Shown here: positions 4,210-61,300 of the stretch, piece after piece
Numbering within the stretch: position 1 is the stretch's first letter
How the letters are laid out: each line of letters opens with the position of its first letter
From: Psammoneis japonica
Lineage: Eukaryota
DNA: 64,000 nucleotides
Assembly (NCBI GenBank): GCA_008632985.1
Contig: QPGO01000010.1
Span: 558,001-622,000 of the forward strand
Direction: 5' to 3'
Notes under the pieces: model-generated
What the model was told of the DNA's origin: nothing
Databases searched by the model: none
Seen by the model: the letters and a program-made list of their open reading frames with translations, nothing else
Program-made: the position numbers and the translations under genes

Positions 4210-4499
4210 CACGATGCAAATGGCGAGGACCAGAACTGCTTCACTTCGACGATATGTCCAAGATATGTCGGAATCCTAAATAAATTTACCCGCCAAATTG
4301 GCTTATATAATTACGAGACTCGCCAAATATTATATCATATATTCAAATTTTAATATTTTAATAATGAAAATTATATGCCAAAGACATTTATGTCACTCTT
4401 AAGTTACAGTATATAAATTGTTCGCCAAAGTTCACGGCCGCGCGCCGGTCGAAGAAAAATAATCTCATCATCCTCACAAAGGATCAGTTACAGGCAGTG

Positions 4500-4775
4500 T
4501 GACAGAAACTGAAGGCAAATGGCAAGAATTCAAACAATAACTCCTTACTGCTGTCTAAATAGCAGATGAGTCTCCGCTCAGAGACCGTTACAGGAGCCGA
4601 AAGACGTGTAAGTCGGTATAATCGGGCTACTGTTGTCATTCTTGTGAGCCTTGTGGCTCAAAAGCAAACTGCATCGCGCGCGAACGCGCGGAACTGAAGC
4701 ACACAAAACTGTGCGCGGCAAACTAAACAGCGCGCGATACTTCGCGCGCATCCAAATCCTGTTCAAATCCTGTCA
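4500..4775 (-). repeat. 3' LTR
   Basis: Direct repeat of 9921-10196, with 13 transition mismatches by my manual alignment. Confidence 0.97.
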
Positions 4776-7700
4776 CTCCCCAGTTTGCTTGAGGAGCCAC
4801 AGAAACAGATTCGACTTCGGATGGAATGAAGTTCCAGAACATGAGGGGGCGGAGAAGGTCCCAGATTTGGGAGCAACCCCAATGCTTGCTGAGAATGTCA
4901 GCAGGGTTGCGGGAGCCTTCGATGAAGTGGAACTCAAGGTAACCAGAGGCAATTGCCTCACGCACACGGTGGAACGACAGTGCGGTGTGTCGCTTGTGTA
5001 ACTTGGAGTGCGGGATGGTGGCACTGTCTACAACCGACTTGTTGTCACCGAACATGTAACTGACATTACGGATCGGGACGCCAAGGCAGCGCAGGGTGAT
5101 GCGCAGGTCGACAATCTGCTCAACACAATTCCTTGCGGCAACAAATTCAGACCCGCAGGTTGCAGTCTCCACGGTGGCTTGTTTCTTGGAGAACCAATCA
5201 GCCGGGAATTTGTTGAGGAAGTGGAGCATTCCCATGACAGAGCATCCGGTGAGCATGCAATGGCACAAGTTTGCATCGACGCAGTGGGTGGTAGTGACGA
5301 ACTTGCCAAGGGGCGGTGGAGCGTCCTTCGGGATCATCTCTTCTGCTTCACCACACACGGAATGCATCCATTCACAGGCCGGAGCAGGGAGATCCGAATG
5401 GTCAGGCTCTTCCGTGCGAACGCGGAGAGCACCGTGTCGCATCTTGGAGAGGTGCCCACAGACGCGTTTGGCACGATCCAAGTGGCCTTGACGGGGCGCA
5501 GCTCGGAAGCTAGAGAGTGACATGACGGCCGTGGCAATGTCAATTCGACCAAGGGACACTGCCCATTGGAGTGAACCAACAAGAGACTGGAACTTGTGAA
5601 TGCCATCGGGTCCCAGCAGTTCGGAAGTGTCCAGTTCGGGGTGGTCACCCTTCTCTAGAGGTGACAGGGCGTTGGTGGCAGGTTTCTCCCCAAACAGTCG
5701 GGCGTGGCTGTCGACCATGCGCTCGATGCACTTGCGCGGAGACAGGCACAAGGTTCCGTCGGGGTCCCGGGAAAAGTCGCAACCCAGATGGAACTCAATG
5801 GGTCCCGTGCCCTTGAGCTTGAACTTGCACTTTTCCGTGAGAGTGTCGACGAAAGGTTGAGGGTCCTTCATGGCAATGGCGAGGTCATCCACATAAACGG
5901 CAATGTGTTCACAGTGGTTGCCGTTCCTGCGCATCCAAATGTCGGGTTCAGCGCGGCAGGGGAAGAAGCCTTCAGCTCGCAGGCAGTCGGCGAAGCGTTC
6001 GTGCCAGCAGAGACCGGAGCTGCGCAGTCCACACAGTGCCTTGTGGATGACAAGGATGTGTCCTTCGAGTTTGCCAAATTCGGGTCCAGCTACAATGTAA
6101 AGCTTCTCCTTGGTGGTGGCCTCAAGGTGGGCATTGCCAATGTCGGTGGCCCATGTCTCCAGCTCGTTGAGTTCGGCCAGGAAAATCATCAGCCGAAGGC
6201 CACGAAGGGAGACTACTCCGGAGTGGACACTGTCGACAGGTACGTCCGTGAGGTGCCCGTCGGCTGCGAGTCGTGCCTTGTGGCGACCGTCGTGTTTCAC
6301 GTCGCACACCAGGTGCACTCGGATCTTCTTGTGTCCCGCAGGAGGAGTGGAAGACTTGAAGGGCCCGCAGTCATGGAAGACTTCGTATTCGTCGAGTTGG
6401 TCCATCTCGAGATTAGTTGCGTCTCCCCACTTGCGGTTGCCGCTGCATTCGTCTAGTGACATGGCGTGTTTGCAGTTCCGGGGAACTTCGCATCCGCACT
6501 TGTAGCGAGGTGCAGTGCGGAAGGAGCGAAGCTTGGCTTGGTTGGCCATGCGAAACAGTTTCTTTTGGCGCCTCGCGACAGTGCGGAACCGCTTCCAGCC
6601 ATCCGTGTCGAGGAGTCCGTTCTCTCGTGCATAGATGGCACAGGTGACGGGGTCGTCCTTGGCGATGATGGCAAGAGGCTCGGACGTGATCTCCCCACTT
6701 TCCCATTCAAGCATGATGTTGTAGCTTGAGCCTTTCCAGGTTGGGTCGTGAGGCTTCAGAGGTCCTTCGTGTGACACGATGCGTCGAAATTTCCAAACAG
6801 TGGTGTCTTCGTCTTCTTGCTCAATGTGATTCATGATGTCATTGCAGGCAAGGACTTCCTCGTGTTCGTCATTGTTGACAGAGCAGACGAACTTAGTGAG
6901 CTCGGGATTGCCGTTCACTTTCCATTCGTGGTCTTCGACGGCCTTGACGATGCGAGCTCTGTGGCGTTGTCCGTCCTCTTGTGGCTGCATGAGGAAGGTG
7001 CGTCCAATGATGTCTTGCGGATCGAAAACTGGCATCTTGGGTGTCCTGATCTCCCCATCAGGAGAATCGACGGGGTTGTCGTCATGGCGAGATTTGATGA
7101 TGGGTTCAGGTGGCTCCCCATCAGGAGGATCAAGACGCAGGTTTCGAACAGCAGGATCGGGGGTGGCGGAGTGAACGTTGGACCGGTGGAGGATCTTTTG
7201 AGTCTCGTCAGATGGGATCTTGAAGGTCATCTGGTGGCCAACGTGCTCAGCAATGCCAACGAAGCATCCGCGCAACTCATGGGATTCGGACGGCCAATCG
7301 GAGTCATCGAGGTGGAAGTGCACTGGTTCCCACCAGTGAAAGCGAAGCAATGGGCTGATGTCCGGGGTGGATCCAGTGAGAGTCTCGAGGGGCGTGCGCC
7401 AGTGGAGACGTGGGGATGCTGTGTGGTTGAGTGTGAAGCACACGCACATGAGCGCCAGCAGCCATGTGTGGGCGGGCGAACCAAAACGGTCCATGACAGT
7501 GTTCGCCATGCGCTTCACGGTCTTTTCCGAAATGGCGTCCACATGTGCAGCGGAGTCACCACAGTCAGCAGGAGTCGTGTTGGACAAGTTGACATCACCG
7601 TCACTCCCAAGGTGTTGGTCGTGAAGGTTGGCCGCAACAGACTCATGGCAGTCACTGGCTCGCGGGTTGCGGGGAGGCGGACGAGAGTGCTCAAGGATGA

Positions 7701-8979
7701 TCGCCTTGGAGGAATCGGGCAACGAATCCCAGAGCCGTTGGTGGTCGGGAGGGAGACGTCTCCATTGGACACCGGTGAGGCTGGGACCACGGGTGCAGGC
7801 AGCATTGGCTTGAAGGACGTCAACGTCGCTGTCAATGTCGCAGAACACATCGTCGGACGGTTCCTCGGAGTGGACGTCGTGTGCGCACATGGCGCGTCGG
7901 GGAGCTCGAGGTGTCGTCTTGGGTTGAAACGTGCTGTCGCACTGAGCTGCCGCGGAGAGGAGCAAGCCACAGTGTTGATCGCATGTGAGGCTCTTGCCAC
8001 TCTGCGCACGATGCTGATCAGCTTGGTCCTTGACAGCACGGAGTTCCTCGACAGGGTGCACGGCATTCTCGAGCATGACGCGCTTCTGTCCTTCAGAGAA
8101 GTGGTCACTGGCGGGGATGAGTGCCTCGCACTTGCGCAGCTGATCTTGCCAATGAAGGATGAACCCGTGGGTCGGACCTTTCCAAGTGCCATCACCAAGA
8201 CGTGCGGTGGTGAGGCATGTGAGCAGGGTGGAGGACTCGACAGATGCACGGGTGGAGGCAAGCGCGCATTCAGACAAGGAGCGGCAGACGGTCTGTGCGT
8301 CAGAGGACCCCACATTTTCGCGAATGAGAGCCTTGCCCTTGTCGGTGAGAAGGATGCGTTCGAAGACGGCGAACATGTGCTTTTGCTGTTCAGCAAAGAG
8401 CAGTTTGTCTTCGGGGCTGGTCGGTTTGTACGACGAGTCTAGAATGCACTCGACGTCTTGGGCACGGGCTTGTGCCACAAGTGAGGTGTGCCAAGTGTGC
8501 CACTGCTTGTCGGATTTGAGAGCCATGAAAGCGGTGGGATCACGCTTGATGCCTCGCTTGAAGTCTCGCACCGGGTCGCGTGCCTTGGTCGGGTTGGTGA
8601 CATGTGGAGGTGCAAGGGGTGAGCTGCCGATGGACAGAGAGGACATGCAGTCCGGGCTGAGGCGGCAGGCAAGGAACTCGTCATGCGTGAACAAAGAGGA
8701 GTCGTTGGCAACGTCAAGACCTTTGTGTGCTTTGACAATGCACAGGCTGACCAGTGCTGCTAACATGTTCTTATAACCACGGGGCAAAGGGATCACATTG
8801 GTGCCGTTGTCGCACTCAAGCGAGTCGATTTGGGACGGTGTGAACGTGAACAGTTCCTGATGCGAGTCCGTGCCGTCTTGGGCCAAAGCCAAATGAAGAG
8901 GACTCCCAGCACCTTGGGCAAGCACGGTTCCAACAACGTGCTCGAAACCATCGGTTTGTTGCTGACGAGTGAGAACCAT
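4723..8979 (-). pseudogene. gag-pol polyprotein (gag, C-terminal part of integrase, RT, RNase H); open frame but probably non-functional
   Basis: RT motifs 'DVKHDGRHKARL', 'DIGNAHLEA', 'KALCGL', 'YVDD'. RNase H motifs 'SKKQATVETATCGSEF', 'GDNKSV', 'NPADILSK'. A chromo-like segment 'WKFRRIVSHEG...LEWESGEITSEP' is present. No protease or integrase HHCC/DDE core is visible. Many expected Tyr residues read His or Cys. Confidence 0.9.
4776..4786 (-). other. Polypurine tract
   Basis: The minus strand reads AAACTGGGGAG immediately before the TG of the 3' LTR. Confidence 0.8.
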
Positions 8980-9903
8980 GGCAGACAAAAGTGGTGTCAG
9001 GACAATCAATTCTGGTTGGGAAGCGAAGGTGGACTCGAAACTTGGGTGAGAACAGACTTGACTTGAAACAGACTTGACTTGAAATCTTGAACTGTCTTAA
9101 AATCAGAAGTCGCCGGGCTTTGTCATCCCGTTCGTTGTCAAGTGCTGAACTTCCCATCCGGTCCGTAGAGTTGTGCCGGCACGTCCGAACCCGCAGCTGG
9201 CGGCGCTTTGGGTTGCTTGCGAGCGGAGCAGCGGGTTGCAAACCCCTGCAGGTGAGCTGACCAGAGGTGGACAAGACCCCCGAACCGTTCTCATTTTAAA
9301 TCGGTTGGATTTCCCGATCAGGCTGGCCAGTTGACGCAGGCGTCAGGTGCTGTGGACGAACGAACAAACGCGGGAAAGCACCCTCGCCCCAACGCAGGCT
9401 GCAATCACGGCTGCTTGCTCTCACAGTCGTCCTCGTGGACCTGGTAGAACTGCAGAGCACCAGCAGTCCGGGGTGGATCAGGTGCAATGGACTCGGTGTG
9501 CTTGTAGAGTGGCAGCAAAACCGCAGTCCGAAGAGTGGGTACAGGTTCTTGGCCGTGAAGACATGCATATATGTGTGCATGTCTTCAGCGACGAAGATCC
9601 TTGAATATGTGGGGTTCTTGACCGTTAACCGATGAACAGGTATATCAAGGGATGAGGATCAAGGATAGACTTGGATATGACCGTTGAATGTATGTCTTCA
9701 GCGATCAAAGGTAGCACAATCAAACCAGATGTCCAGCGGTAAGGAGACTTGACGGTGACGTTAACTTCCTGCCGATGCCCTGGCATTGGATGCGCGTAGA
9801 CTTGCCGATGTATGTAGAACATATACGGAGGTCCACGTAGAATTGAAATAGCGTCGTTGGTAAATCAACGACGACGATGGCGGTTGCTCAATGGGTTGAC
9901 AAT

Positions 9904-9920
9904 GAGCAAGACTGTTAATC
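9904..9920 (-). other. Putative primer-binding site complementary to a tRNA-Asn(GUU) anticodon arm
   Basis: The minus strand after the 5' LTR reads GATTAACAGTCTTGCTC. Its complement GACTGTTAATC is an Asn anticodon stem-loop sequence. Confidence 0.55.
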
Positions 9921-10196
9921 TGACAGAAACTGAAGGCAAATGGCAAGAATTCAAACAATAACTCCTTACTGCTGTCTAAATGGCAGATGAGTCTCCGCTC
10001 AGAGACCGTTGCAGGAGCCGAAAGACGTGCAAGTCGGTGTGATCGGGCTGCTGTCATCATTCTTGTGAGCCTTGTGGCTCGAAAGCAAACTACATCGCGC
10101 GCGAACGCGCGGAACTAAAGCACACAAAACTGTGCGCGGTAAACTAAACAGCGCGCGACACTTCGCGCGCATCCAAATCCTGTTCAAATCCTGTCA
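9921..10196 (-). repeat. 5' LTR
   Basis: Direct repeat of 4500-4775, followed by TSD CAGTG. Confidence 0.97.
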
Positions 10197-10259
10197 CAGT
10201 GCGTGGCTCTCTCCACTCTAGAGCCAGCTGCAAGAGCCAGGAGTAGAGTAGAGAGAAAG

Positions 10260-11000
10260 AATGCAGAGCGAGCAATCAGCACACACAATGCTTTTGCAAG
10301 CCGAGGTCTTCTTGCTTGGATCGTCTTTGAGCTGTCACTTGCTCACACCCTGCCTTCCTCTCTTGCAAGTGTGCCGCCCAAACCTTTGCACGCAAGCCTG
10401 TGCTTCTTCTTCCAGCACATCCACTTGGCATGGGCACTGTGCACAACCACCGGTGTGCAACAGTGTGCAAGCTGTGCTGTTTGGAGGTTGCAAGGCATGT
10501 GCCATGGGGTCAAGAGCAGCTGCAGTGTGGGCACAGCAGCAGCGCAAGCTCACAGGTGTGTGGTTGTTGTTTGCAGCAGCAGTGGCATCATTGGCCAGAA
10601 AAACAGGCATGTGTGAGAGAGCTCTCTCTGCCTTTTTCTGGCGTGATCTCTGGGGTGCCACCCTGTGCGATGGCAGCAACACTTGGCTCACTTTCAACAA
10701 GCAGCACTGACAGCACATGATGTCTTTCCAGGTGGCAGTGCTTGCAACAATGTGTTCTCTGCTGCTGTGGCCATGTGCTTGTGACACAAAAAAAGCCACT
10801 GCACACGTCTGCACCCCCAGCCACAACAGAGAGGAGAGAGAGCTGGCGGGAAGAAGAAGGCAAAGGAAAAAAAAGAGAGGTCGGCACACACATGTGTGCA
10901 CTTTGGTTTCCCTCTCCCATGCAGTGCAACACATTGAAAGTCCCTTGACCTCCACCTTTCCATTTGATTGAAGAGCACAACAAGAATGAATCACAAATTT
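10260..11000. repeat. TpA- and CpG-depleted block flanking the retrotransposon
   Basis: No TA seen between about 10260 and 11295. Strong TG/CA excess and no recognisable protein. Confidence 0.6.
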
Positions 11001-39349: not shown

Positions 39350-41000
39350 TTAAAGAAAACATCCAGCCCACTTTTGCTCTGATAAATGAATAAAATGAAA
39401 GCCCTTGGGGGCTTCAAAACGGGGAAAGGTGTGAGAAACAACTTTGTTGCAGCTCGGGCGGCCGTGGAGCCAGGAGGAGCAGCTTGGTGTGGTGCAAGCA
39501 AGGTCCCACCCAGAGCTGGAGAGCATCAGATGACAGAAATGCATGTTTTCTGTCATTGTTCAGGTCCTCACACCTCTGGCATTTGGCACACAAAGTGTTG
39601 AGCCTTGAAAGGAAACTCTTTGAGAGGTGGTCCTCTTCTGTTTTTGTTGGGGAAACACAGCAAAAAATTGCAAAATTGACAAGCGAGTCCAAAGTCACTC
39701 CTTGCATCTCAACTAAAAGAGACATGAAACAGCAACAAGCCAGCACCACACACAAAGGCTTTGCAGGCCACCCTCTGACAATGCTGGTGTGCACTCAACA
39801 AGACACCATGATGTGTTTTGTGGTGCCTTGTGCCTTTCTCACCACATGAGAACATCAACATTTGCTTTGCATGAGTGGCAATGCTCTTGAGAAACTTCAC
39901 TTCAACACATGCCAACAAACAAGAGGATCTGAGCAAAGAAAAAGCAGGAGGAGTGAATGGCTTCTCTGGATCTGCTGGCGTCTTTCTTGCTGCTGCTCTG
40001 GCCAAGTGTGTGTGTTGCGCAAGAAGCCAGGCAGTGAAGGGAGTTCACAACAGGGCCCCAAAATGATCTGACTGCTCACCCTGTGGCAAGGGGTGCAGCA
40101 ATTTAGAAAAAGCCAGAATGCATTGAAACCTCAGCAAAGCAATTGATGCATTAAAAATTTCCATGTTGGCAGCACTTGTGTGTGTGTGTGGTGGGCAACA
40201 ATCTCTCTCATGTGATTGGCGCCAGCCCCTGACAGTGTGTGTCTGTTTGCAAAGAGAGTTTGTCACAACATTGATTTTGCAGCACAACATTTCAAAGGAA
40301 ACTCACTGAACAATGAGTTGAGAGCAGTGGTGGTGGTCATGTCGGCACTGTCTGGCAGAGCTGCAGGACATGAAAGGGACAAAAACAACAATCTTTTTTG
40401 CTGTTGCAGCAACTGCACCTTTCAAAGATTGCAGAAACGCCAATTGAAAAATGGCACAGGCTCTTAAAGCCAACACCAACATTTTGGCTTGTTGTCAAAA
40501 GGATGATGATGTTTGGTGTGTGTCTTTTGTGCATTTTTGCGCATCTGTTGCTGCTGTTGCACAGCATCATTTGAGGCAAAGCAGCGCTGCTGGAAAAGCT
40601 CCAGAGAGTCGCCACAGCCAGAGTGCGCACTTCCTCTTGGCTGCCACCAGTGTGCTGAATGCCTCCAGTGTTTGCCAGTGCAGGTCTGTCACAACTTCCT
40701 CAGTTTTCAGGGTGTGTTGGTGTGCACCTTGTGCGCCAGTTGGCTGGCTCTGCTGCTGCAAGACAGGCCCCCCAGCACGCACAGAAAGAGCAACAAACAT
40801 GTGGCGAGTGGTTTCCAGAGGCAAGAAGGGGAGGCAGGCAGTGGCATCCCCACCTCTGATGCTGCACATGCTAGCAGCTGGAAGCACCTGTGGTTGTAAG
40901 CAGTTGTCAACTGTTGTGATTTGTCATCCTTTTGGTCCCAAAGGAAATTCGGTGCGCTCATGCACATCCGCCCTGTGCTGAACCGCCAAAGTCAGTCATG
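39350..41000. repeat. TpA/CpG-depleted intergenic block, probably an eroded transposable element
   Basis: Sharp compositional switch between two normal genes. Only a handful of TA remain. No clear TIR or TSD found. Confidence 0.6.
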
Positions 41001-44300: not shown

Positions 44301-47300
44301 GAAAGACCTTTTGGCGGTGTATGGGGCGATGTCAACGGGAGTCACAGCGATAGCATGCAGACAGACATAGGAACAGAGAATTTTGGAAAACGAGTTTTCG
44401 CTTGTCTTGTGGAAGTGAAGGAAGGACTAGAGAATGGCGACCCGTCCTCTGAGCGATCGGCGGAGCGATGTTTGAGAATACTGAATGCCGCCGTCGACTG
44501 CGGCAGCAGTGGCAGTTCTGTCACACGTACCATGCTAGCTTCAATTTCATCCATGGCAAAGGAGGGAAATCTAACCGGAGCTCTGAAGCCGCTTCCTCAC
44601 GGCGTGAGAAGTCAAGCGTGCTACAGGAGAATCGGGGTAATGGCGAAGCGCACGTCACCGCCTAACCAAGGCGTTGTTCAGACGATGACACCAAAAGGCT
44701 CTCGGGGTCGGGAAGAAAATTTGGCGCCGGCCCAGTCCAACGGTGGCGGTCATCGAAACTCACCAACCGTTCGTTTCCACCTCGACGTACATCCGCTTGA
44801 GACTCTGGTATCGGTGAAAATGAAAGTTGCTAATTACTGCAAGTGTTCACCGTCTTCAGTTAAGCCCATTTCAGTGAGTGGGCGGTTAGCCGGCACCCGG
44901 TCGCCGAACGATTCCTCTCAGATGAGTCTGAACGTAGTTCCTGATGACTCGTTGGTTGATCAGCTCGGGATTGTGCAAGGCTGTGAGATGGTTTTGTAAT
45001 CAATGATAGACAGGTTCAGCCAAACCCGAACGTTCCATCCAACAAAGTTGGGGCTTCGAAAGGTCCAACGCTTGAGCTCAGTGAGATTTTCCACAGTGGA
45101 CCTAACGGATATTCTGACAGATTATTCGAAACCTTGCTTGGGGTTCTTGAAGCACTACCTGAAACGTCAAACCAAGCCGTGGACACTCGCAAACATGTTT
45201 GGGATCTACTTTTGGCTATGCCCACCAACGTACGCATATCGAAAAAAGTAAGGTCTACCGCTGAGAAGGGGAACGCACAAGTCGGATCGAAAATCGACGG
45301 GGACGCAATGATCGTTGATATCCCACTTGATCTCTGGACCAAGCTCCTCGATCTAAGGAGCTTTCACCACTCTGTGTATGTCATGCAAGTTATTGATGCG
45401 CTCCTCCAGCCAGCACCGGAGGTACTTTGTTCTCTGCCTTCCGACGAAAGGAGGGTTCTGGAGAAAACTATGCAGACAGAATCTGCGTCTTTTCGCATCG
45501 GGTTCATTCATTCTGGCGGCTTCGATGCTGTTGTCCGTTTTTTCTCGGGGTCCGGTAGACACAGAAGAGGCAGAGCTACAATGGCCAACGCGGTTGCGTT
45601 GAGAATTTTGAAATGCTGCTTGTTCGGTAACGGTTTGCGCAGTGGCGAGCATTCTTCTGGTGGCTTAGACGAAGCGGGTGCTCAGCTTCTTGATTCGTTG
45701 TCTGAAAAAGAAGGTCTTCTGAAAAGTCTCGTAAAAGTTGTCATCGACGACGAAGGCATCTCAAGCGCTGCCATTGGGGATGTGCAGAAATTCCTTCGCC
45801 AACTGTTTCGAAATCCTCGTGCGACGGAAGCATTTGTATCGCTCCCAAATGGTATGGCGGAGCAATTCGTCATCACTCTCATTTTGTGGGAAGGAGGGCC
45901 CGAGGCGACTCGTACAAATTCTGCGACTAGAATCCGAAAGAATACCCAAGACTTGATTCTGAGCAACTCGGCGTTAGCAACTCGTTCCTTGCCTTGGTTG
46001 ATCAGCGCCATGGATAAGAAAGTTGATGTGACATCGGATTGCTCATCCGAGTACTTCGCTGTTTTAAGAAAGCTTGTTCAGGCCGATGGAGAGAAGGCAG
46101 TGGCATCGCCGTCGCACTTGCGAGATCTTGGAACAACGGTGTGCAGTAAGCTTGCATCCTGCCCTCGACCCACCAGCGACAGCGCCTTGATTGACTATTC
46201 TACAGGGGTATTGTGTGGTTGTTTAAAGCTTATGCGTGCCCTGATTGAAATTGGCGGAGGGGCTGCGCTTCGCCCCGGCACAACCCTCCTACTCCAAAGC
46301 GTTGGTGTGAAACGGTGGTCTGATAACGGATCAATGTCTAGTAGGGGGCTCCTTGGCAGGATGTCGATGCCATTTCGATCTAGATTGAAACCCGAGGACC
46401 TAACGCTCATAGACTTAATGGGCGGTATTTTTGATGGCTTTCTCACACCGGGTGGGTCGTCGTCTGTCGTTTCTATATGTTGTGATAAGGAGTCACGTCA
46501 ACTTGGATTCGACATTGTCGGGGCGGCGGCGAGGTCTTCCTCAAGCAGTGGTGGTTACTTTGCGCTAGTTTCGAGAATTGAAGGTATCATTGGCTCCGCC
46601 GCCCCCTTCCTGCGGCACAGATGGGGACACAACGGAGGAACGGATGATGGTCACAATCGCCCTTTGAGGAGTTCGTCCAAGTACTCAGGTCTTAAGAACC
46701 AAGGCTGCACCTGCTACATGAATTCAGTGCTCCAGCAACTTTTTATGATGCCAGGACTTCGGTCTAGTTTATGCGCGGCCACTCTTCCTTCCGTCTTACG
46801 TACTTCAGGTGGAGGACAATGCGTGAAAGGATCGGAACTGGTGGGAAAGAAGATTTCTCTCCAGTGGGACAGCGGCGTTTCTTACGATGCCGTTGTCGAA
46901 GGATTTGACGAAACAACTGGGATGCACACCATCCGATACTGTCCAATGCAAGTTGCAACCGTTGGTGGCACCGGCCACCAACAGGTGAACCCCGACGAAG
47001 TTGCGAGTCTTCCTCGGGAAATGCCTGACGAGTTCTTCCTTTCAGAGGGCCGTCCAGGTAGAGAGACCGGCGTGTTTGAAGTCGTGGACACAACAACGCA
47101 AGGCACCGCCGGGGATGCACCTGCAGTCGCTGGAGAGAAGTCTACAGAAAGGAAGGTTCGTCGACCTTCCGTTGGAGGTATTGAAGAGACTGAAGATGAA
47201 GCATCGTCGAGGCATTTGTTGGAAGAGGTGCAACGCACATTTATCCATTTAGACGAAGGTTCTCGAGGACGCCCGTTTGATCCTCGAGCCTTCGTGGAAG

Positions 47301-50300
47301 CCTGCAATTGTCTCAAGTTGGAATTCGACGTGTGGCAGCAGAACGATGCATCTGAATTTGCGATGAAACTACTTGACAGGCTGGAGATCGCGCTGAAGAG
47401 GTGGTCGCCAAGCAACTTCAAGTATTTGGAGCACACTTTTGGTTTGAAACAAACGAAACAGAAGTTGTGTAAAGAGTGCCAGCTCAAGGTATGCACACTA
47501 CTTTTGCCCGCTCGAAATTTGGCTTTCTTTCGATTCTCCATGTTGTATCTAACATAATTTCTCACCTTTGGTTGCAAACATCAGACTAATCGAGAGGAAA
47601 ATCTTATGAGTATTGACTGTCAAATTCGAGGGAAATCCGATATCCACGAAGCCCTAGCAACGATGTGTGATGTTGAGTATATGGAGGGCGACAACAAAGT
47701 CTTCTGCGACCGCTGCAAAAGGAATACTGATACGGTGCTTCGAACTGCAATCTCAGCTCTTCCAGATATGCTTATTTTGTCTCTCAAGCGTTTTGATCTA
47801 GATTACAACACATTCGAAACGGTGAAGCTCAATAGTCGCTGTGCATTCGGTCAAACTTTGAATATGAAAAGGTATACACTCGAAGGAGTAGATGCCATGG
47901 AACAAGCAAATGTTGACGGCGCTTCACCGATGGACACGGACGATGGAACCAATGACCCGTTGAGCTCTCTTCCCGATGAAGATTATGAATACAAACTTGC
48001 GGGGGTTCTTGTTCATGCCGGGGTTGCTCAGGGTGGTCATTACTACAGTTTCATAAGGGACCGCTTCACCGCCAAGGGAGACGACGAGCCAGACAAGTGG
48101 TATCGTTTCGATGATGACGATGTTACTCCGTTCGATCCTTCTTTAATAGAGGCAGAGTGCTTCGGTGGTAAGGTGAAGAAAGAAACCAAATTTTCATCTG
48201 GGCAGGTACACACTGTTGAGAGCGAGCAATTCGCCAATGCCCTTATGGTCTTTTATGAGAAGGTTAAGCCCGCCAAGCGCCCTGAGGAAAAAGGGAAGGA
48301 GAAGAAAGAACCCAAGACGAAGCAACGGATTGCGGACCAGAAGCTAGAAAAATCCAGCGGGTATGACGTGTTCGAAGCCGATGTTCGACGTTCCAATGCT
48401 ACACATCGATGGCAAACATTTCTGTTTGATGCCGAATTCCAGTCGTTCCTGAAGGGCTTACTGGGATTCTGCTTCTTGACGCGGAACGACATCGATCGGA
48501 TGGATGTCTCATCAGCTACCACAGCTACTGGACTCTTGCCGGATAGTGAGACTGAAGAATCTTGGCGCACGGCGCTTGTACAAATGCTTCTCCTGTTCGT
48601 GTATGATATTCTGCTCTACTCTGCCGATAAGGGAGCTCTAGATTATTGGGTAAACAAGTTATCAGAAGGCATGAAAAGCAACAGAGAGATTGCCAAGACT
48701 TTTCTTCAGGTTCTCGCAAAGAAGACAAAAACTGTCAGCGCTAATTGGCTGCGTACCTACCTTGCTGACTGCCCTGAATCAGACTCCCGCGTCGCTGCAT
48801 CGCGAATCTTCAGCGCTGCAATCGTGTCGTGCGCTTCAGACGAGAGGGAGCAGGCGGCGCTCAGGCGGTGGTCACAAGCATGGCGGGAGCAGATTGCAAC
48901 GCAGCGAAAGGTCTCCATAAGATTGGAAGGCGAATTTCAGCACCTCGAAGACTTAGAATCCGACGATGCATCTACTATCGGGGTGATTGCCTCTCATTTG
49001 ACTGCGCTTCTCGAAGTGTTGTCTCGGACATGGCGTTACACATCCGACTTCTGTTTGTTTCTGAGAGATTTGAGCAGCACCGAGACAGTTTCTGGTGACG
49101 CACTCCGTGAAGCCTTGGTAGAATGTCAGATCCCAGCTCGACTTATGTGCCTGGTAACTCGCGAGAGATCGCCACCGCCGTTGAAGGCAGCTTTTCCCGG
49201 CGAATCTGCTTCTATCGACGTTGTCGAAACACAGATAAGACCTGAGACGAATCCTACTTCTCACTGATGCCGTTGAGTGGGAACCAACTAATGAATACCT
49301 CGGACTTGAACTCCAGGGGTGCATCACCCAGCGGATCAGACTTCGTCACTTTATTTGAAACATTGGGTTGCCTATTGCGTGTGGAAGGCATCAAACTGGC
49401 AGACCTTGTGGTTGAGACGCAAGACGCAACAAGAATGCGCCATCGCGTCGCCCTAACCGATGCTGCTTCAGAAGCACTACGGACCATTTTCGGCGATAGT
49501 GCAGATCCAGGATCAAAGCTAATGGGCGCTACGACGTTGAAAAGTATTTAAGAACATGCGGTGTCGACTCGTCGGCAGTGCCACCTCAGCGAATCGTTGA
49601 TATTTTGGCGAAGTACCATGCAGCAGACAATGGAAACGGTCCCAAAGGCAACTTTTTGGGCGTCGAGGGTTTCCTTGCTTACTACCGGGATACCGCGCAG
49701 ACAAATGAAGCTCGGGTAAGTAACTCGACTGAGACGGCAGTGAGTCTTGCGTTTCGTTCTCTCTGTTTTGCGCAGCTAACTCATCTGATAATCTCGATCT
49801 TACTTCCAGGTGCGATCGGACCTTCACACCTTTGGATTCCGTCCTGATCTATCCCGTCGTTCCCGAGAGGCTAGAGTTTTTGATTCTGGTGGAGGTCACG
49901 AGCAACTTTATTCCACAGTTGAAAGTGTGACTGCCGACGTCACTTCGAGCCAAAAGCAAAAGGGCTGTGTGATGCTTGGCCCGCTAGCTGATATTGGTCT
50001 TCATTGTTTCCATTTGTTCGCTTATGCGTACAGTGCAAGTGAAATTCTCGCTGAGCACATCCTAGCTGCCTCTGCGTACGAGAAGGATACGTCTGATTTA
50101 ATAAATGGCACGCTGAAGGCGTTGTATCGCGCACCAGCAGGTTGGGCGGGGAATGAGACATGGAATTCGGCTGTTATGGTAAGCGCTTTCGTTATATGAT
50201 CTTAGACGTGCCTACGCTTTTGCCGCCTTGCTAACGCCGCATTGTTATTTTTTTCGGGCTAGGTGTTGAAAATTCTCTCGGCACTACCGGACAGTCGACA

Positions 50301-52986: not shown

Positions 52987-54600
52987 GGCTCTTCGTCTCA
53001 TTTCTAAATCTTTGACTGCCAGACATTTAAAAGCACACTAACACATCCACTGAATGTTGGTGGTGTAGCCCTCTGTCGGCTAACAAACCCCAGCTGAAAG
53101 CTCGGCCACCAGTTGGGCTAGAACCCCAGTTAGATTCGGTTGCATTGGCCCACAGGCACACCAGTGTGATTTAAACAGAACCCGGGCCCACGCCGCATGA
53201 GTTCGAATCACCAGCCTCTGCAGCTCCAGCCGATGCAACAGCATGGAAGAGCAACAGAGTTGCTCCAACGAGGTCCAAGCATGAGCTGCTGGCCACGACA
53301 CCCTTGCATCTGTGGCGTCTCAACCAGGTGGGTGGGAGGGAAAGAAACAACAGCCAAAGGCTTGAATCCTTCAAAAGCCGTGACAAACAATGTGCAATTG
53401 CAGATGTTGCGGAGGATCTTCACGCAGTTTTGAAGGTGCAACTTTTTATGAGACATGTCAGAGTGAAATGGAGGGAGAGCGAACAAGTGTTTCTGAAACG
53501 AGAAACGAGTCACTTTTGCAGTGGGAATCACTTTTGCAGTGGGAAGAGTGATTCGAACCCCGACAACTGCTGACACACCTTGACATTCTCGTTTTCCAAA
53601 AAGGGCTCTCCCTTTGCTTCTCATCCCAAATGCTGTAAAGTGTTGTGCTTGTCATTTGACAAGAGAATTCAACAAAAACAATCGCCGCAACAAACCGCGC
53701 GACTGAGACATAGAGTCAGTGAAAAATGTCCAGCCGCAGTCCACGATCAAGATGCTCGACTCAGTGCCTGGTGAAGCCAAAGGTGCAGATTGGCTCTTTG
53801 TCTCATTTCCAAATCTTGGGCTGCTGGACATTTAAAAGCACACCAACACATCTGCTGAATGTTGGTGGTGTGGCCCTCTGTCGGCTGACAAACCCTGGCC
53901 GAAAGCTCGGCCACCAGTGAGGCTAGAACCCCAGTTAGATTCGGCTGTGTTGGCCCATCAAGAACAGGCGCTAGTGATTTTAATGGAACCTGGGCCCATG
54001 CCACATGAGTTCAAATCACCAGCCTCTTCAGCTCCAGCCAATGCAATGGCGCAGAAGAGCAACAGAGTTGCTCGAAGAGCCAAGATGCAACCGACGAGGT
54101 CCAAGCACAAGCTGCTGGCCACGACACCCTTGCATCCATGGCATCTCAACCGGGTGGGTGGGAGGGAAAGAAAAAACAACCAAAGGCTTGAATCCTTCAA
54201 AAGCCATGACAAGACAATGTGCAATTGCAGATGTTGCAGAGGATCTTCACGCAGTTTCGAAGGTGCAACTTTTTATGAGATGATGTCAGAGTGAAACGGA
54301 GGGAGAGCGAACAAGTGTTTCTGAAACGAGGAACGAATCACTTTTGCAGTGGGAAGAGTGATTCGAACTCCGACAATTGTTGATGCCTTGACATTCTTGT
54401 TTTCCAAAAAGGGCTCTCCCTTTGCTTCTCATCCCAAATTGCTGTAAAGTGTTGTGCTTGTTGTTTGATGAGAGAATTCAACAAAAACAATCACCGCAAC
54501 AAACCGCATGACTGAGACATGAGTCAGTGACAAATGTCCAGTCGCAGTCCACGATCAAGATGCTCGACTCAGTGCCTGGTGAACCCGAAGGCACAGATTG
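52987..54600. repeat. Tandem duplication of about 805 bp
   Basis: Copy 1 spans about 52987-53791 and copy 2 about 53792-54600. They are collinear along their length and differ mostly by transitions. Confidence 0.92.
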
Positions 54601-55459
54601 CGCTTGTTGGTGGTTCAGGAGGGGGAAATTTGACTTTCAGCACATGCAAGAAGGCAAATGCTGCCGCTTGTTGTCTTTTTGTGACAGCCCATCTCTGGAA
54701 AAGTTGTGTGTGCCTTGTTCTTCCATGCACCTGCTCACAAGGCAAAAGACAACCCCAAGAAATTGTTGTTGGCAGCACCAGGACAAGAACCAAAACCACA
54801 AAAAAAGTTCACACAACTGCCTTTGGATGACTGTGCTGGTGCAGCTCCACAATGTTTTCACCATGGCTTGCCCTTGGGGTCAATGTGGGCTGCCAGAGCA
54901 GCACTCTCCAGCAAATGAATGACTGTCTTTGGCTTGCTGGCTGTGCCAGCTAGCTTGGCACACCCTGCATGGAAGAAGAGAGAAAGAAAGCCAGCAGCTG
55001 AGAAGGAGACATCATCCATGCACATTCTCAATGCTTCTTCTGAAGCAAGAAGAAGGCAGAAATGGGGCAACAATGAACACTTGGTTTGGCATGATCTCAG
55101 GCAGCCAATGGACTGACATGCTGCACACAAGCTTTTTGTTTGCCATTCACAGCTTTGGCACCAGGCAAACGAGTCTTCCTGCTGATGAGCAGAAAAGCTG
55201 GTGCTCCTGCAATGTTTTGCCAGCACCCACTCCATGTTGTTGCCCACTCTGCACGATCCTGTCTGGAATCTAGAGCCAGAAAGGAAATTTCAAATGTGGC
55301 GCCACTTTCACCCCCATGCCTTGCTGAAGCTGTGGGTTGTGGTGATTCTCCCCATGTCTTTCTCCATGATCTGTTTGTTCTTGGCTGCTGTGCCCCAGCA
55401 GTGGTTTGGAACATTGTCAAGATCCAGCCCCGCACAGCACTCAGGAATGCAGGAACATC

Positions 55460-56700
55460 AACAGCAGTGCAACTGCAGTGGATTTTTGATCATGCACTCT
55501 GTGATGGCCAAAAACTTCTCTTGATTGTAGCAGAAGTGACTGGAAGCACTGCTGACAGCTTTGTGCACTGACACAAGATCTCCATTGACTTTTTGGAGCA
55601 GTTTGGACAGATTGTCCAGCAGGGTGCAACACCTTGCAGCACACAACAAGATGGAACACAAGCTGAAACATTGCTGTCTTTTCCTGCAACTTGGAGCTTT
55701 CCCCAACACTTCCACCTTTGTGCCTTTGTTGCCAATTGTTGAGTCCAGCATGAAATGCACAAGATCATGGCAGTCAAAGCCATGCATTCCCTGCAACTTG
55801 AGTGCATGTCAGAGAAAGCCACAAGACCTCCCTCAATGAATTTTTTGCATTTGGCTTCTGAGGATTTCTTGCAGAGCTCCTTCATGAAATTTGCAAGAGC
55901 GTCATGCTGCATTGCTGAGCCACCCAGCCACAAGGTTTCAAATGTCCAGTCACAATGCAGAGAACATGTCATCAAGCAATGAGGGAACTTTTGAGAGTGC
56001 CTGGCTTTGCACAATCTGCAATGCAATCCATGCCATGATGCTCCTCTCAAGTGTGAACCCATTCTGACAAATGAGCGCCAATTGAGATCTGCTCATGCAT
56101 GGCAATGTCCTCAGCACACTCATCAACCTGTCATCAAACAAAACAATGATTGACTTGCAGGTCTTGTGAAATGATGGAGGCAGATCTTGGAAGTTGAAGT
56201 TTCCTGTTTTCACTCAAGACAATGTGGAACAAATCACACCTGGCAGATTGCACCCAGATGCTCATGGACTCAAACTGTGTGCTTGGCACCTTTCTGTGTG
56301 CACAACTCATCTCATCGTGTAAGATCCTTTGCCATTGGTTCTGTTCAATGACAAGCCATGGTGAGCTGGACAATGCAGTGCTCATGAAAGTGGTGTCCAG
56401 AACTCAGCATGCTGTGATGTCAACAAAGCTCTGCTCTCTGCTGGCAGCTCTCTTCTGTGAGTGCATTGTTCACAAACAGTGATTTGGCAGAGTCTTTGTG
56501 ATGACTCTCTGTCAGGTGAATTTGAAGGGGGGGCAGCATTTGAAGCTCAGTGAGTGCAAGTCACCACTTCAATGCAACAGAGGACATCATGACAGCTCCA
56601 TTTTTGGCAGTTTCTTAACTTTTGCTGGCATCAACATGAGCCATTGTCCTGTCTCCCCATGGCTGCTTTGGAACACTGGGGACATGGCCTGAGCTCATTG
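55460..56700 (-). mobile_element. Eroded hAT-like transposase remnant, copy A
   Basis: 'LSAVLPVTSATIKRSF' matches the hAT dimerisation-domain pattern 'LPVTSA..ERSFS'. 'IEGGLVAF' is shared with copies B and C. Confidence 0.6.
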
Positions 56701-56849
56701 TCAACAATGAATCTTCACTCAAAGGACTTGAAGAGCATGATGACCAGCGGACATGTTGGGTGATGCCACAGACACCTTGAAAAACATGATGACATCAGTG
56801 GCATCATGTTGGGCAATGCTGCAGATGCCTCAGGGTCTTGAGGAGCATC

Positions 56850-58700
56850 AACAGCTTTTGCATCATTCACGGCTGTTGGCAAGTTGCTTGTGGCTTCATG
56901 AGAGTTGGCTTTTGCACCACTTGAGCACAACTGACAATTTTGAGAACTGTGTGCACTTTCTCCTTGTGTCCATGGATCAATGGTTGTCCGCAGAAGTAAA
57001 ATGATTGCCGTGAGTTGCACAAAAACAATGAGTGGGTTCATTGCCTGGTTGACAGTCACCAGCTTTGTCCACCAAAATTGAAGCAACTGGTTCAACCACC
57101 AGGCCTTGGTTGCAAGTGCCATGAATGTGACAACATGACCAATGAAGAAAAACCAAGGTGTCATCATGCATGTTGTGTCAAGCTGACTGTCGGCCTCCAA
57201 CCCTCTGGCATTTCATCCCAAAACAGAGTGTGAAAATGGCCAAGTTTGTGATGAGTGAACCCATGCACAAAGGAAAGAGAAACAATGATTTGGCTTTCAG
57301 GAGGGTGACTTTGGACCCTCCAAAATTGAGAATCAATGCAAGGGCACAAACTGACAGGAAACCAGTGTGACTGCAAATGTTGAAAGTCCAAACACTCAAA
57401 CACCCTGTGAGACAGGAAGTTGTTCCAGATGCCAAGGAGCATCACACACCAGACTTCTGGCTGCAGCCATTCCTGTTGGCAAAAGAGGTCCCTTCAACTC
57501 TTCATTGATTGTCGACAATTGTTGCCACTCTCAGTGGTGGAAACAAGCTTGGGGCAGTGAAAGTTTGCATTCCACCTTGGGCCATTGTCTGACCCTGGAC
57601 ATTGCACAGGTCAACTGAAATGTCATCTGGACAAGCATGACAGTGCTCTTCCTCATCAAATCTTGTGTGACCTGATGCACCTTGAAAGCTCAAATTTATC
57701 ATGCCAGCAAGCATTCTTTCATCAAGGCCAATTTTGGTGGAATCCATTTCTTGGTCCAGCTTTGCATCCTCCAATGCAAAGTGTTGTTGCAGCATCGCAA
57801 GTGAATGATGTCAAGGTGTTTGGTTTGTTCTCTGTGAAAGCAATCACCAGTTGCCTGAAAGAAGCATGCATCATTGCCTGCCAGTGAAGAGCAAAGAACA
57901 TTGAGAAAATCTGCAAAGTTGATGCCCTGATCTCTTTGAGCTTTGAGGAAAGGGTCGCTGTGTTTTGCTGGCCAAAGCTGATCCATCTGGTCAAACACAA
58001 ACAATGCATTTGTCAACAGCTTGTCTGAGGAAGATCCTTCCTCTGCCTTGCCAAATGAGTTGTCAAGTTGATGGTCTGCAGGAAAAGCTGCAGGAGGTGA
58101 GATGATGCAGAGGTGGTCTTCTCCGAGTGGGCCCTGCTCATTGATCACTTCAGTCATGCTCTTCAACACTTTCAGATCCACCAAAGGTTTGTTGCCACAA
58201 CCACACTTGCATCTCTTCCCTCTTTTCAAAGGCTTGCACAACAAAGTTAGAGCCCTCATCTGCAGCTCCAACAAGTTCTTTCCCCCCTCTTTTGTTGAAG
58301 AATCTTTGTCATCACCTTTGCTTTGGCTTTTGATGTCTTGATCACTGACAAATTTTTGTCAAGAAGCTCTGCAGCACAAGCATGGAACAAGTGGTTGATT
58401 CTTTCAAGTGCCCCAATGAATGATGCCCACAAATGGGATCCTGTCTAGAGTCTCACAGAGCCAGGGCACCACAGTGCAAGTGAAGCAAGCACCCTCACAC
58501 ACCATGTGACCCAAAAGAGCACTGTCTCTCCCATGATCAGGGGATGGGATGAGCAAGGAAACTGCAGCGCAAAAAAAAACCAAATTTGGCACTGTTTTCA
58601 CCCCTGTTCCATGCTGCCAGTGAAACGTGATTGTCGGGGCTCTCTGCTCATCTCCCATCCTTTTGTTGCAGTGCACCTTGTCAAGAAGATCCAGCTCTGT
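56850..58700 (-). pseudogene. Hypermutated class C (GABA-B-like) GPCR gene remnant
   Basis: Fragments 'FQGASGHTRFD', 'LFLFPLCMGSLITNLAIFTL' and 'LDTTCMMTPWFFFIGHVVTFMALATKAWWLNQLLQF...TIDPWT' resemble diatom 7tm_3 receptors. Frameshifted and Tyr-free. Confidence 0.75.
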
Positions 58701-58759
58701 GCAGATGCAGGAAAATCAAGAACAGCACATCGAGTTGCTCCTGTGACATTTGTGACCAC

Positions 58760-59880
58760 AGTTGGTTTTTGATGCCTTTTGTGGTCGAAAAGCTTTTCTC
58801 AATTCTTGTGACAGAAAAAACTGGAAGCACAGGCATTGTGCTCAGTGCCCTTTCAGGCAAGCTTTTGTTGGTGCCACTGCAGTTGGTGGATTGGGTTTGC
58901 ACAATCCTTCTCAATGGAGCTGCTTGTGGGGAAATTTGACTTTCAGCATGTGCAAAAAGGCAGTGCTGCCACTTGACAGCCCATCTCTGGAAAAGTTGTG
59001 TGTGCCAAGGATTGAGTCCTGCATGAAATGTGTGGGATCATGGCAGTCAAAGCCGCTCTCCATGACTCAAGTGTTGCAGCTCCAGAAAATGTTAGAAAAA
59101 GCTGCAAGACCTCCCTCAATGAGCCCTTTCTTGCACCTGGCTTCTGGGCACTGAGGATTCCTTGTTGCACACAGAGCTCCTTCATGAAATCTGCAAAGAC
59201 AGTGTGCTGCATTGCTGAGCCAGCCAACCCAAGGTTTCAAATGGTTCACAATGCAGAGAGCAAGGGAACTTTCTCCACAGCCTTTTCAACCACCAAGTTC
59301 AGTTGCTTCACTGTGCAGTGTGAACAGAATGCCTGGGGCAAAATCTGACTCATGAGCACCTGAAGTCCACATGTGTCCCCAACATGTTGGGTGCACCATC
59401 ACAGTCCTGATCATGCATTTGCAGCTTGAGAGATCTGTCACACTGATGCCACATTTTTTGTTGAGGAGGAAAGCAACAATGGTGCTCTGGCATTCTCAAG
59501 GCAGAGTGCCCGACTTTGCATCTGTGACACAAACCATGCCAAGATGCTCCTCTCCAGTGTCACCCTGTTCTTGGCACAATGAGCACCTGTTGACATCTGC
59601 CCATGTTTGTCATGCATTGCAGACAGAATCTCAAACATCAGCCTTTGCCCCTGTCTGCATCAGATCTCCAAAAGCCTGCATCAATGGAATGCAGAGAGTG
59701 GAGTGCTCATTGTCCATTTCTGCTGTGAACTCAAACAGCTCCATTTCTTGTCACATGGGTTGGGTGACCAACCAAGATTGCTGTGCACATCATGTTTTCT
59801 CTGCTTGCCATGACTGCAGTTTCAATGGCATGGTGTGGAGGTTTTTTGGCAATGTGCTGCAATGCTTTGAGGGAAAAGAG
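58760..59880 (-). mobile_element. Eroded hAT-like transposase remnant, copy B
   Basis: Nucleotide similarity to 55740-56100 and 60150-60900, e.g. 'gatcatggcagtcaaagcc' and 'caagacctccctcaatg'. Its end also matches 52965-52985 and 54620-54715. Confidence 0.55.
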
Positions 59881-59939
59881 TGAGCAGAAAATCAGACATT
59901 CCATAAAAAACAGAAGCAATCTTTTCTCATTTGATCTTG

Positions 59940-61300
59940 TTGAACCATGAAAATGATCACAAAATGTCCCTGTTGACTTTTTGAAGCAGTTTGGATGGGT
60001 TGTCCCAGTGTTGGTGGGTGCAAGAACACCTCACAGCAAACAACAAGTTGATGGTGGAGCACCAGCTGAAGCATTGCCATCCATTCTTCCTGCCAACCCA
60101 AAGCTTTTCCCACTGCTTCAGTCTTCATGCCTTCATTGTCAACAGTTGAGTGTGCAGTGTGAAACACATGGGATCATGGCAGTCCAAGCCATTCTCCATG
60201 ACTCAAACGTTGCAGCTCCAGCATGTGTCAGGGAAAGCCACAAGACCTCCCTCAATGGATCCTTTGCACTCAGCTTCTGAGGATTGCTCCTTGTTGAAAT
60301 CCTTCACAAAATTTGCAAAAACAGCGCGCTGCTTTGCAGATCCATCCACAAGGTTTTGGATGGTTTGCAGTGCAGAGAACATGTTGTCAACCAATGATGC
60401 ATTCTTCTCCACAACCTTTGTTCCAACCACCATCAAGATCAGTTGATGATGCACCATGCAGTGTGCACAGAATGCTGAAGACAAAATTCATCTCATGAGT
60501 GCCCAAAGCCCACCTGTGTTCCCCAACGTGTTGGGCACCACACCATTGCAACCACCCTGCAGTGCAGTTGCAGTTTGAGATCCTCTGTCACACTGGCACC
60601 ACATGTGTTGACATTCTGGCATTCTCAAGCGTGTTGGACTTTGCACCTGCAATGCAAGCAATGCCAAGATGTTCCCACTGTCCAGTGATCCCATTCTTGA
60701 CAAAATGAGAACCAACTGACATCTGCTCATGTTTGGTGATGTCCTCACACTTGCTGACAACCACAGCGGCAAAGACAGAAAATTTGCAATGTCAGCATTT
60801 GCCTCTTTCTGCATCAGATCTCCAAAAGCCCAAATCACTTCGTTTCAAACATTGGCGTCAATGCAAAAAGCATTTTTGGGTTGATTGGAGTGCAGAGTTG
60901 AGCGCTTGTTGTTCATTTCTGCTGCAAACTCAAGCAGATCCAAAAAAGTTGCTGTAGCTGGGTGTGTCAGTCCATTCCTGTGGGATGCACCTGCCTTGGT
61001 GCACTGGTGCTGCCAACACTGTCATCAGCATCTTCCTCCTCCTGTGGACCACCAGCATTGCTGTGAGATGAACATCTTGGTGCAAGTGACTCTGACTTGT
61101 TGCTCTTTTGCTGCAAGCAGAAATCTGCTCCAGCACACAGGTGCCTGTGGTCATTTGGCAATGCTGTGCTGACCAAGTTGAGGGGTTCATCAGTCTTGGT
61201 CTTTAGCTCTTTCACAAATTTCTGAGACAGAGTGGTGCCCCTTGTGAAGTTGGCAGGGTTGCAGTGCATGCAAGTTGCTTGTTCATGTCATGAACCTGCT
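59940..61300 (-). mobile_element. Eroded hAT-like transposase remnant, copy C
   Basis: 'IEGGLVAFPDTCWS' is interpretable as the hAT 'TRW' motif after a CGC>TGC change. Collinear with copies A and B. Confidence 0.55.

Follow-up and report, generated by a model that had tools for sequence, protein, structure and literature searches.

Anatomy of the Copia Element

Within a 64,000-nt stretch of the Psammoneis japonica assembly GCA_008632985.1 (contig QPGO01000010.1, positions 558,001 to 622,000 of the forward strand; hereafter the window, to which all coordinates refer), we analyzed a Ty1/copia-type long terminal repeat (LTR) retrotransposon copy that lies on the minus strand at 4500–10196 and whose polyprotein frame is nearly free of tyrosine. 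Its 5' LTR (9921–10196, minus strand) and 3' LTR (4500–4775, minus strand) were delimited by repeat-pair detection, alignment, and exact comparison: they are direct repeats of 276 bp with TGACAG...CTGTCA ends, hence the TG...CA termini, they are identical at 263 of 276 bases, and both outer ends are directly flanked by the same 5 bases, a CAGTG target-site duplication found at 4495–4499 and 10197–10201. A leader (9010–9920, minus strand) separates the 5' LTR from an open reading frame (ORF) of 1428 codons (4723–9009, minus strand), and a purine run, GGGGAG on the sense strand, adjoins the 3' LTR.

According to the ORF list and to homolog alignments, this frame comprises gag-like and reverse transcriptase (RT)/RNase H parts. 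Its sole Pfam match is the RVT_2 reverse-transcriptase domain (PF07727; residues 890–1099, positions 5713–6342, minus strand; E 5e-24, 85.6 bits vs. a cut-off of 31.6), and RVT_2 alone is likewise what Pfam matches in two of two intact homologs. The ATG at 8979 is the probable start of the polyprotein, given that homolog N-termini align from ORF residue 11; an earlier note on this DNA, made from its letters alone, had ended the frame at this very coordinate. At its other extremity, the frame extends 17 codons into the 3' LTR (4723–4775). Near the point where homologs end, codons 1407 (CAA) and 1410 (TGG) are candidates for a converted stop codon.

Of the 8000 candidates scored in a protein search with residues 850–1400 as query, 1871 were relatives at E ≤ 0.001, with identities of ~67–73% for the best; among the top 120, most full-length relatives are 1850–1950 residues long and ~65–73% identical to the copy. 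Alignment to 50 full-length homologs revealed that ~485 residues (homolog residues ~460–944, between gag and RT) are missing from the copy, in frame. The junction of this internal deletion (7523–7526, minus strand) is supported by the alignment gaps, by tblastn high-scoring segment pairs interrupted at 7618/7524, and by contigs of other copies, which diverge from the element at 7523 and 7526 with loose ends of up to 255 letters. The deleted part is presumably the protease/integrase part, going by motifs that we recognize in the homolog consensus rather than by a domain match. A tblastn search with seven homologs found no copia copy in the window beyond this element.

Tyrosine and TpA Depletion

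The earlier note had counted 10 Tyr alongside many Cys and His, and the count stands: the 1428-residue frame holds 10 Tyr (0.70%), 49 Cys (3.43%), and 73 His (5.11%), all outside the ranges found in the 120 best of the 1871 relatives (3.31–4.97%, 0.47–1.66%, and 2.79–4.49%, respectively). At the dinucleotide level, the observed/expected ratio of TA in the ORF is 0.14, with TG at 1.54, CA at 1.27, and the other A/T steps at 0.89 (AT), 1.10 (AA), and 1.06 (TT); CpG, at 0.89, is abundant, as had also been claimed. The shortage of TA affects all three codon phases (11, 10, and 6 observed vs. 72, 52, and 65 expected) and is therefore not an effect of codon choice.

The host genes of the window have a TA ratio of ~0.55 and a CG ratio of ~1.0. 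Followed along the window, TA stands at 0–0.3 in the element interior versus ~0.4–0.9 in host gene regions; relative to its neighboring genes, the depletion is confined to the element. In the matched parts of 79 related metagenome loci, the TA ratio ranges from 0.31 to 1.13 with a median of 0.65, and none of the 79 falls below 0.3.

Direction and Specificity of the Changes

We defined conserved columns as those in which one residue occurs in at least 70% of the 50 full-length homologs. The copy is identical to the homologs at 609 of these 738 columns, and residue types other than Tyr are retained at 74–97% of theirs. At the 42 conserved Tyr columns, by contrast (Fisher p 1e-20), the copy has 8 Tyr, 19 Cys, 10 His, 3 Phe, 1 Leu, and 1 Trp, so that both orientations of the change described in the earlier note, Tyr to Cys and Tyr to His, are present. 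Looking at the same question from the side of the gained residues, 23 of the copy's 49 Cys and 14 of its 73 His fall at Tyr-majority columns, when only 7 of the Cys fall at Cys-majority ones. Eight motifs had been singled out as having lost Tyr. For seven of them, the homolog consensus does carry it (KALYGL, GNAYLEA, SVYSGVV, YEYIAVYVDD, ATYGSEF, LRYLGVP, and KHWGY) and the copy has Cys or His instead; in the motif that reads HIAVYVDD, the lost Tyr residues lie upstream and the Tyr of YVDD itself is retained. The eighth, LVCDVKHDG, differs: the consensus of the 20 closest homologs has Phe at this position, and Tyr occurs solely in the more distant homologs P0001 and P0003.

A codon alignment with the closest relative (locus L001; 1364 codons, 61% identity, TA ratio 0.84, CG ratio 1.10) displays the same direction in the DNA. 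Where this relative has 177 TA sites, the copy has TA at 14, CA at 48, TG at 36, and another dinucleotide at 79. Retention is thus 0.08 for TA versus 0.33–0.57 for the other 15 dinucleotides, which means that substitutions elsewhere are not equally frequent. Moreover, TA gave way to TG or CA at 84 of 177 sites and the reverse is seen at 1 of 21 (the copy's 21 aligned TA sites are TA in the relative 14 times, CA once, and TG never). The direction from TA to TG/CA that had been proposed is thus borne out by three comparisons independent of one another: the homolog columns, this codon alignment, and the LTR pair examined below. At the 315 CpG sites of the relative, CG became TG 60 times and CA 25 times.

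A general bias from AT to GC, or GC-biased gene conversion among copies, could be thought of here, as the family is multicopy and the ORF has a GC content of 0.57 compared with ~0.49 for the window. Yet the effect is confined to TpA, as the ratios of AT, AA, and TT given above attest, and there is no excess of A>G at codon position 2 unless T precedes (0.44 after T, 0.11 otherwise, relative to L001). We give this explanation next to no credence.

Timing of the Changes in the LTR Pair

Across their 276 bases, the LTRs disagree 13 times, and 12 of the 13 differences are at TpA sites. In ten, TA in one LTR faces TG or CA in its partner; a further two, on neighboring bases, consist of TG facing CA, a pair that, on comparison of the two repeats, is one ancestral TA changed in both LTRs with different outcomes; and the remaining one is CA versus CG, at 4660/10081. 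Based on at least 15 ancestral TpA per LTR, the 3' LTR has kept 11 and lost 4, and the 5' LTR has kept 7 and lost 8. In other words, changed bases amount to 12 of 30 TpA positions versus 1 of 246 other positions, a roughly hundredfold difference. Since the LTRs of an element are identical at integration, these differences arose later and at the DNA level; judged from the repeats themselves, at least the LTR changes are thus DNA-level, postintegration events.

Further Copies in the Probable Source Sample

The element occurs in one sample (runs X1–X4), from which the assembly was probably made and which is therefore not independent of it; no RNA data set was listed among those containing the element. 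Placing the contigs of X1 on the element at a likeness of at least 80% gave 12,171 pieces, spread over four likeness bands (3001, 3909, 3756, and 1505 pieces), which indicates that the family is multicopy and diverged. The differences among these copies comprise 259 transitions versus 19 transversions. When 40 of the 284 difference rows were sorted into event classes, they resolved into 32 events: 8 adjacent TG<>CA doubles, 4 cases of TA in the window's copy facing TG or CA in another, 4 of the reverse, 9 CpG-type changes, and 7 others. Within these 40 rows, Tyr codons account for 10 of the 16 TA-type events. Codons 929, 993, 1102, 1204, and 1308, all five of them conserved Tyr columns, encode Cys in the window's copy and His in others, or vice versa, and Tyr itself persists in some copies at codons 380, 1094, and 1186. 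Different outcomes at the same ancestral TAY codons imply that the changes took place independently in different copies.

On the basis of the LTR pair, of these copies, and of the comparisons with homologs, we hold it quite likely that a TpA-specific process acted on the element at the DNA level, after its integration.

The CpG-type changes form the second most common class (1 of the 13 LTR differences and 9 of the 32 copy events, the latter from the same 40 of 284 rows). They are consistent with the onset of methylation-linked decay.

An Open Frame by Default

In an enumeration of every single-base A>G or T>C change, no sense codon becomes a stop and five changes turn a stop into a sense codon, when C>T and G>A changes yield stops from CAA, CAG, CGA, and TGG. 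As the earlier note had observed, there is no in-frame stop in the 1428-residue ORF; since A>G and T>C changes cannot create any, the open frame is a by-product of the process, silent on selection or activity. The accompanying idea that the element had been inactivated by missense rather than nonsense changes is borne out as far as the Tyr missense load goes, but the copy also suffered the ~485-residue deletion, and the absence of stops is uninformative.

Three frames in other phases overlap the polyprotein: 6817–8442 (plus strand, 541 aa), 5704–6456 (plus strand, 250 aa), and 7515–8396 (minus strand, 293 aa). Because TAA and TAG have been lost, such overlapping frames are expected artifacts and not genes.

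Uneven Depletion and Codon Phase

Several observations weigh against a single, unselected wave of postintegration changes. To begin with, the element was not depleted evenly: 8 Tyr codons were kept and 29 lost to Cys or His, in comparison with 18 TpA kept and 12 lost in the LTRs (p 0.002), and the leader has a TA ratio of 0.52, far less depleted than the ORF (23 of its 27 TpA lie within 9506–9917). An interior more depleted than the ends suggests that part of the loss may predate the insertion, or else that targeting was uneven. Furthermore, the outcome at the TA sites of L001 depends on codon phase. In Tyr codons (phase 0), the copy has TG 22 times, CA 9 times, and CG never; in xTA codons (phase 1), TG 10 times and neither CA nor CG; and at codon junctions of the form NNT|ANN (phase 2), TG 4 times, CA 39 times, and CG 11 times. 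The contrast between phases 2 and 0 is strong (p 5e-8), and the synonymous route dominates wherever one exists, a bias that a purely unselected process would not give.

Part of this bias has an ordinary source. Third-position T>C changes occur at a rate of 0.70 before A against a baseline of 0.45, and, to judge by that baseline, ordinary synonymous divergence accounts for part of the phase pattern; a preceding T does not raise A>G at codon position 1 (0.22 after T vs. 0.16). For the remainder, we lean slightly toward two layers of TA loss, in which an older, selection-filtered purge of synonymous TA in the active lineage would have been followed by unfiltered changes in dead copies, taking Tyr codons and LTR sites. 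Alternatively, targeting may have been uneven, or the cis-acting ends may have been preserved in a deletion derivative mobilized in trans.

The same pattern invites the thought that TpA/UpA was removed by selection, through codon usage or the avoidance of UpA-cleaving RNases, rather than by mutation: outside Tyr codons, TA went mostly by synonymous changes, host DNA is itself TA-poor (~0.55), and relatives reach down to 0.31. Selection, though, cannot put Cys or His in place of 29 of the 42 conserved Tyr, RT motifs included, nor can it make LTRs diverge almost solely at TpA or copies differ as Cys versus His at one codon, and we deem it very improbable as the cause.

Strand Pattern and Editing Before Integration

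The uneven depletion also bears on another scenario, in which the changes were made before integration, either by an ADAR-like A>I editor acting on RNA or by a deaminase acting on cDNA, and accumulated over the cycles of a nonautonomous element mobilized in trans. That the ORF interior is more depleted than LTRs and leader would suit it, as would the lack of the protease/integrase part, which makes the copy mobile in trans only. There is also a modest sense-strand excess of A>G at Tyr codons, with 23 Cys versus 14 His at Tyr-majority columns and 19 versus 10 at conserved ones; the latter difference falls short of significance (p 0.14), and in the LTRs the tilt is in the opposite direction. RNA editing, however, predicts TA>TG on the sense strand alone, when both TG and CA are seen, and identical LTRs, when they differ at 11 TpA sites. 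The outcomes further lack strand coordination: Cys and His form 21 runs along the ORF versus 18.4 ± 2.8 in 20,000 shuffles. Lastly, the same TpA loss affects blocks of the window without recognizable retroelement content (described below). Editing before integration thus strikes us as improbable.

With regard to the enzymes that such a scenario calls to mind, the element resembles targets of APOBEC3 and ADAR in that deaminase-type, context-dependent transitions inactivate a retroelement by missense load. The substrates of these enzymes are single-stranded cDNA or double-stranded RNA and their products are strand-coordinated runs, whereas here both strands were changed, site by site, after integration. 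The interleaving of Cys and His speaks against an ADAR- or APOBEC-type editor that moves processively along a single strand and fits a site-by-site attack on either strand of duplex TpA. Hyperediting of the ADAR/APOBEC type was rejected as a candidate on the number of runs and on the divergence of the LTRs after integration. ADAR, according to Mettrop et al. (10.64898/2026.01.13.699255), prefers a 5' U, and ADAR enzymes have been described from metazoans.

Depleted Blocks Elsewhere in the Window

Four complex, nonrepetitive blocks of the window are depleted in both TpA and CpG: 1–1850, 10251–10950 (which abuts the element), 39401–41000, and 53151–63850. Their observed/expected ratios are ~0.03 for TpA, ~0.03–0.5 for CpG, and ~1.8–2.0 for TG and CA. 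Among the 79 stop-to-stop frames of at least 90 aa in these blocks, none reaches a Pfam cut-off, with two weak matches below threshold, and comparison of the four blocks revealed no similarity among them, apart from repeats within the last one. Diatom transposons are described as CpG-methylated. The blocks are probably older insertions of mobile DNA in which the TpA process is complete and a slower CpG decay has been following.

In the last block, a direct repeat of ~630 bp with 86% identity (53166–53792 and 53974–54600) is accompanied by weaker internal repeats (68–73%) further in; an unrecognizable element may account for these repeats, as its LTRs or as nested copies of it. Across the four blocks, 44 TpA survive in 14.2 kb, 10 of them in CTAG and 10 in TTAA, with none in ATAT, ATAC, or GTAC, all of these being small counts. 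The CTAG and TTAA contexts are not enriched in the host background, and the contexts of surviving TpA may mean that the mutator favors certain flanking bases or that C>T has created fresh TpA.

Metagenome Loci with the Same Scar

The 79 metagenome loci were searched by tblastn with P0007, an intact homolog, as query, and the search was read from the rows of the 25 lowest and 5 highest loci. Among these listed matches, eight loci (L071, L079, L056, L059, L060, L078, L049, and L068) keep fewer than 40% of the Tyr positions and have 13–24 Cys plus His there, and a ninth (L026) is borderline, when typical loci have 0–2 Cys. At the 47 Tyr positions of L071, for instance, 6 Tyr, 15 Cys, and 9 His are found. 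Scarred loci, the borderline one included, have TA ratios of 0.31–0.62, the lowest of the 79, CpG ratios of ~0.6–0.8, and a few stops. They are ~45–59% identical to P0007 and belong to a family other than that of the window's copy. As the eight loci share a contig-name prefix, they count as one independent source.

These loci also speak to the concern that modified TpA in transposon DNA was miscalled as TG or CA during sequencing or assembly. In certain long-read data sets, base modifications are a known source of systematic miscalls. Yet the same scar appears in unrelated metagenome assemblies, 65% of the sampled 31-mers of the element occur in the X1 contigs, these contigs, with depths in the tens, carry discrete alleles (TG, CA, or TA), and the element's own LTRs retain many TpA, which makes an artifact barely credible.

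A Proposed Mechanism and Its Relation to Known Systems

In the mechanism that we propose, the element would integrate, after which a DNA-level process would turn palindromic TpA into TpG or CpA, by A:T>G:C transitions, some 100 times as often as other changes occur. TAY codons would become TGY (Cys) or CAY (His), and the frame would stay open while the protein is ruined. All Tyr codons contain an in-frame TA, which is unique among amino acids, hence Tyr as the protein-level casualty. By analogy with what has been described for viral DNA in Bigelowiella natans, we infer that this process would be a host-encoded activity directed at mobile DNA; its likeliest chemistry, to which we nonetheless give rather less than even weight, would be a deamination of adenine to hypoxanthine on either strand of double-stranded TpA.

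TpA-specific hypermutation is so far known from one 2026 preprint, on two viral inserts in one chlorarachniophyte, B. natans, and our full-text literature search found no report of it besides this one. In that study, 230 of 231 mutations that arose in the two viral inserts of mutation-accumulation lines were A>G or T>C, all at TpA (Mettrop et al., 10.64898/2026.01.13.699255), at a TpA mutation rate of ~6e-7 per site per generation; reverse-transcriptase and DDE domains are overrepresented in TpA-depleted coding sequences, and the authors propose that the process is due to an adenine deaminase of the ADAT2-like kind (10.64898/2026.01.13.699255). The likeness to our case extends to changes exclusively at TpA, to TpG and CpA as products, to the A:T>G:C direction, and to a confinement to foreign or mobile DNA, here within the window; in B. 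natans as well, regions depleted in TpA and enriched in CpA and TpG cluster in the genome, with reverse-transcriptase domains enriched among the depleted coding sequences.

There are also differences. The process in B. natans was measured in real time on two single-copy viral inserts (from a nucleocytoplasmic large DNA virus [NCLDV] and a virophage), whereas ours is deduced from the sequence of a multicopy LTR retrotransposon. Depletion is far deeper here, with a ratio of 0.14, and of 0.03 in the older blocks, versus a Rho of 0.45 for the B. natans NCLDV region, and the older blocks are also depleted in CpG. Gene structure differs too: the window holds nine host ORFs of 450–1300 uninterrupted codons, including cold-shock-domain, TELO2, kinase, and UCH genes, whereas B. 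natans genes have a mean of 8 introns (PMC13746701 Table 1), so that the organism is probably another one. For the TELO2-like gene, an ESM Atlas comparison gave only generic eukaryotic clusters, and a homolog search yielded no match at E ≤ 1e-10. The finding is thus a further instance of this recently described hypermutation, with a new kind of target and, apparently, another host. For the CoDi elements of diatoms, the lineage that the earlier note had in mind for this copy, a term search of Maumus et al. 2009 (PMC2806351) found no mention of hypermutation, repeat-induced point mutation (RIP), deamination, or dinucleotides.

Like fungal RIP, the changes described here amount to hypermutation by transitions in a dinucleotide context, and they ruin repeated mobile DNA where it sits, independently in each copy. 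RIP acts mainly at CpA and so generates TpA and stop codons; by contrast, TpA is destroyed here, GC rises, and no stop can arise. With TpA depleted, CpA and TpG enriched, and stops absent, RIP itself was rejected as a candidate, its direction being C>T (PMC7296669). The decay of CpG through 5-methylcytosine provides another likeness, as it too turns a palindromic YpR step into TpG and CpA in silenced repeats, but it affects CpG and not TpA, and it accompanies the TpA loss in the older blocks of the window, where CG ratios of 0.03–0.2 are seen. In the younger copia copy, a CpG ratio of 0.89 facing a TpA ratio of 0.14 indicates that the TpA process is separate from, and faster than, CpG decay.

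From a broader perspective, these comparisons raise the prospect, which we rate just short of an even chance, that an adenine-directed counterpart of RIP exists outside Bigelowiella. A host system would recognize integrated mobile DNA and rewrite TpA on either strand, in a multicopy LTR family of an intron-poor, diatom-like eukaryote as well as in the organisms that harbor the scarred metagenome loci; alongside CpG decay, it would leave old insertions free of TpA and CpG, and active lineages would have purged their synonymous TpA, with Tyr codons remaining as an irreducible target. If this were true, the process would be a widespread genome defense of protists rather than the curiosity of one species, and long open frames in such genomes would not be evidence that a gene is active or under selection. 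Mobile DNA would then leave diagnostic fossils, in the form of "proteins" poor in Tyr and rich in Cys and His and of blocks lacking TA and CG. Dating by LTR divergence would also be badly inflated unless TpA sites were masked, as they hold 12 of the 13 differences here.

A Probably Split UCH Gene

Among the host genes of the window, two adjacent plus-strand ORFs, at 45134–47557 and 47606–49267, carry the N- and C-terminal halves of one UCH ubiquitin-hydrolase domain, and they probably belong to a single gene that a short intron or a frameshift interrupts.

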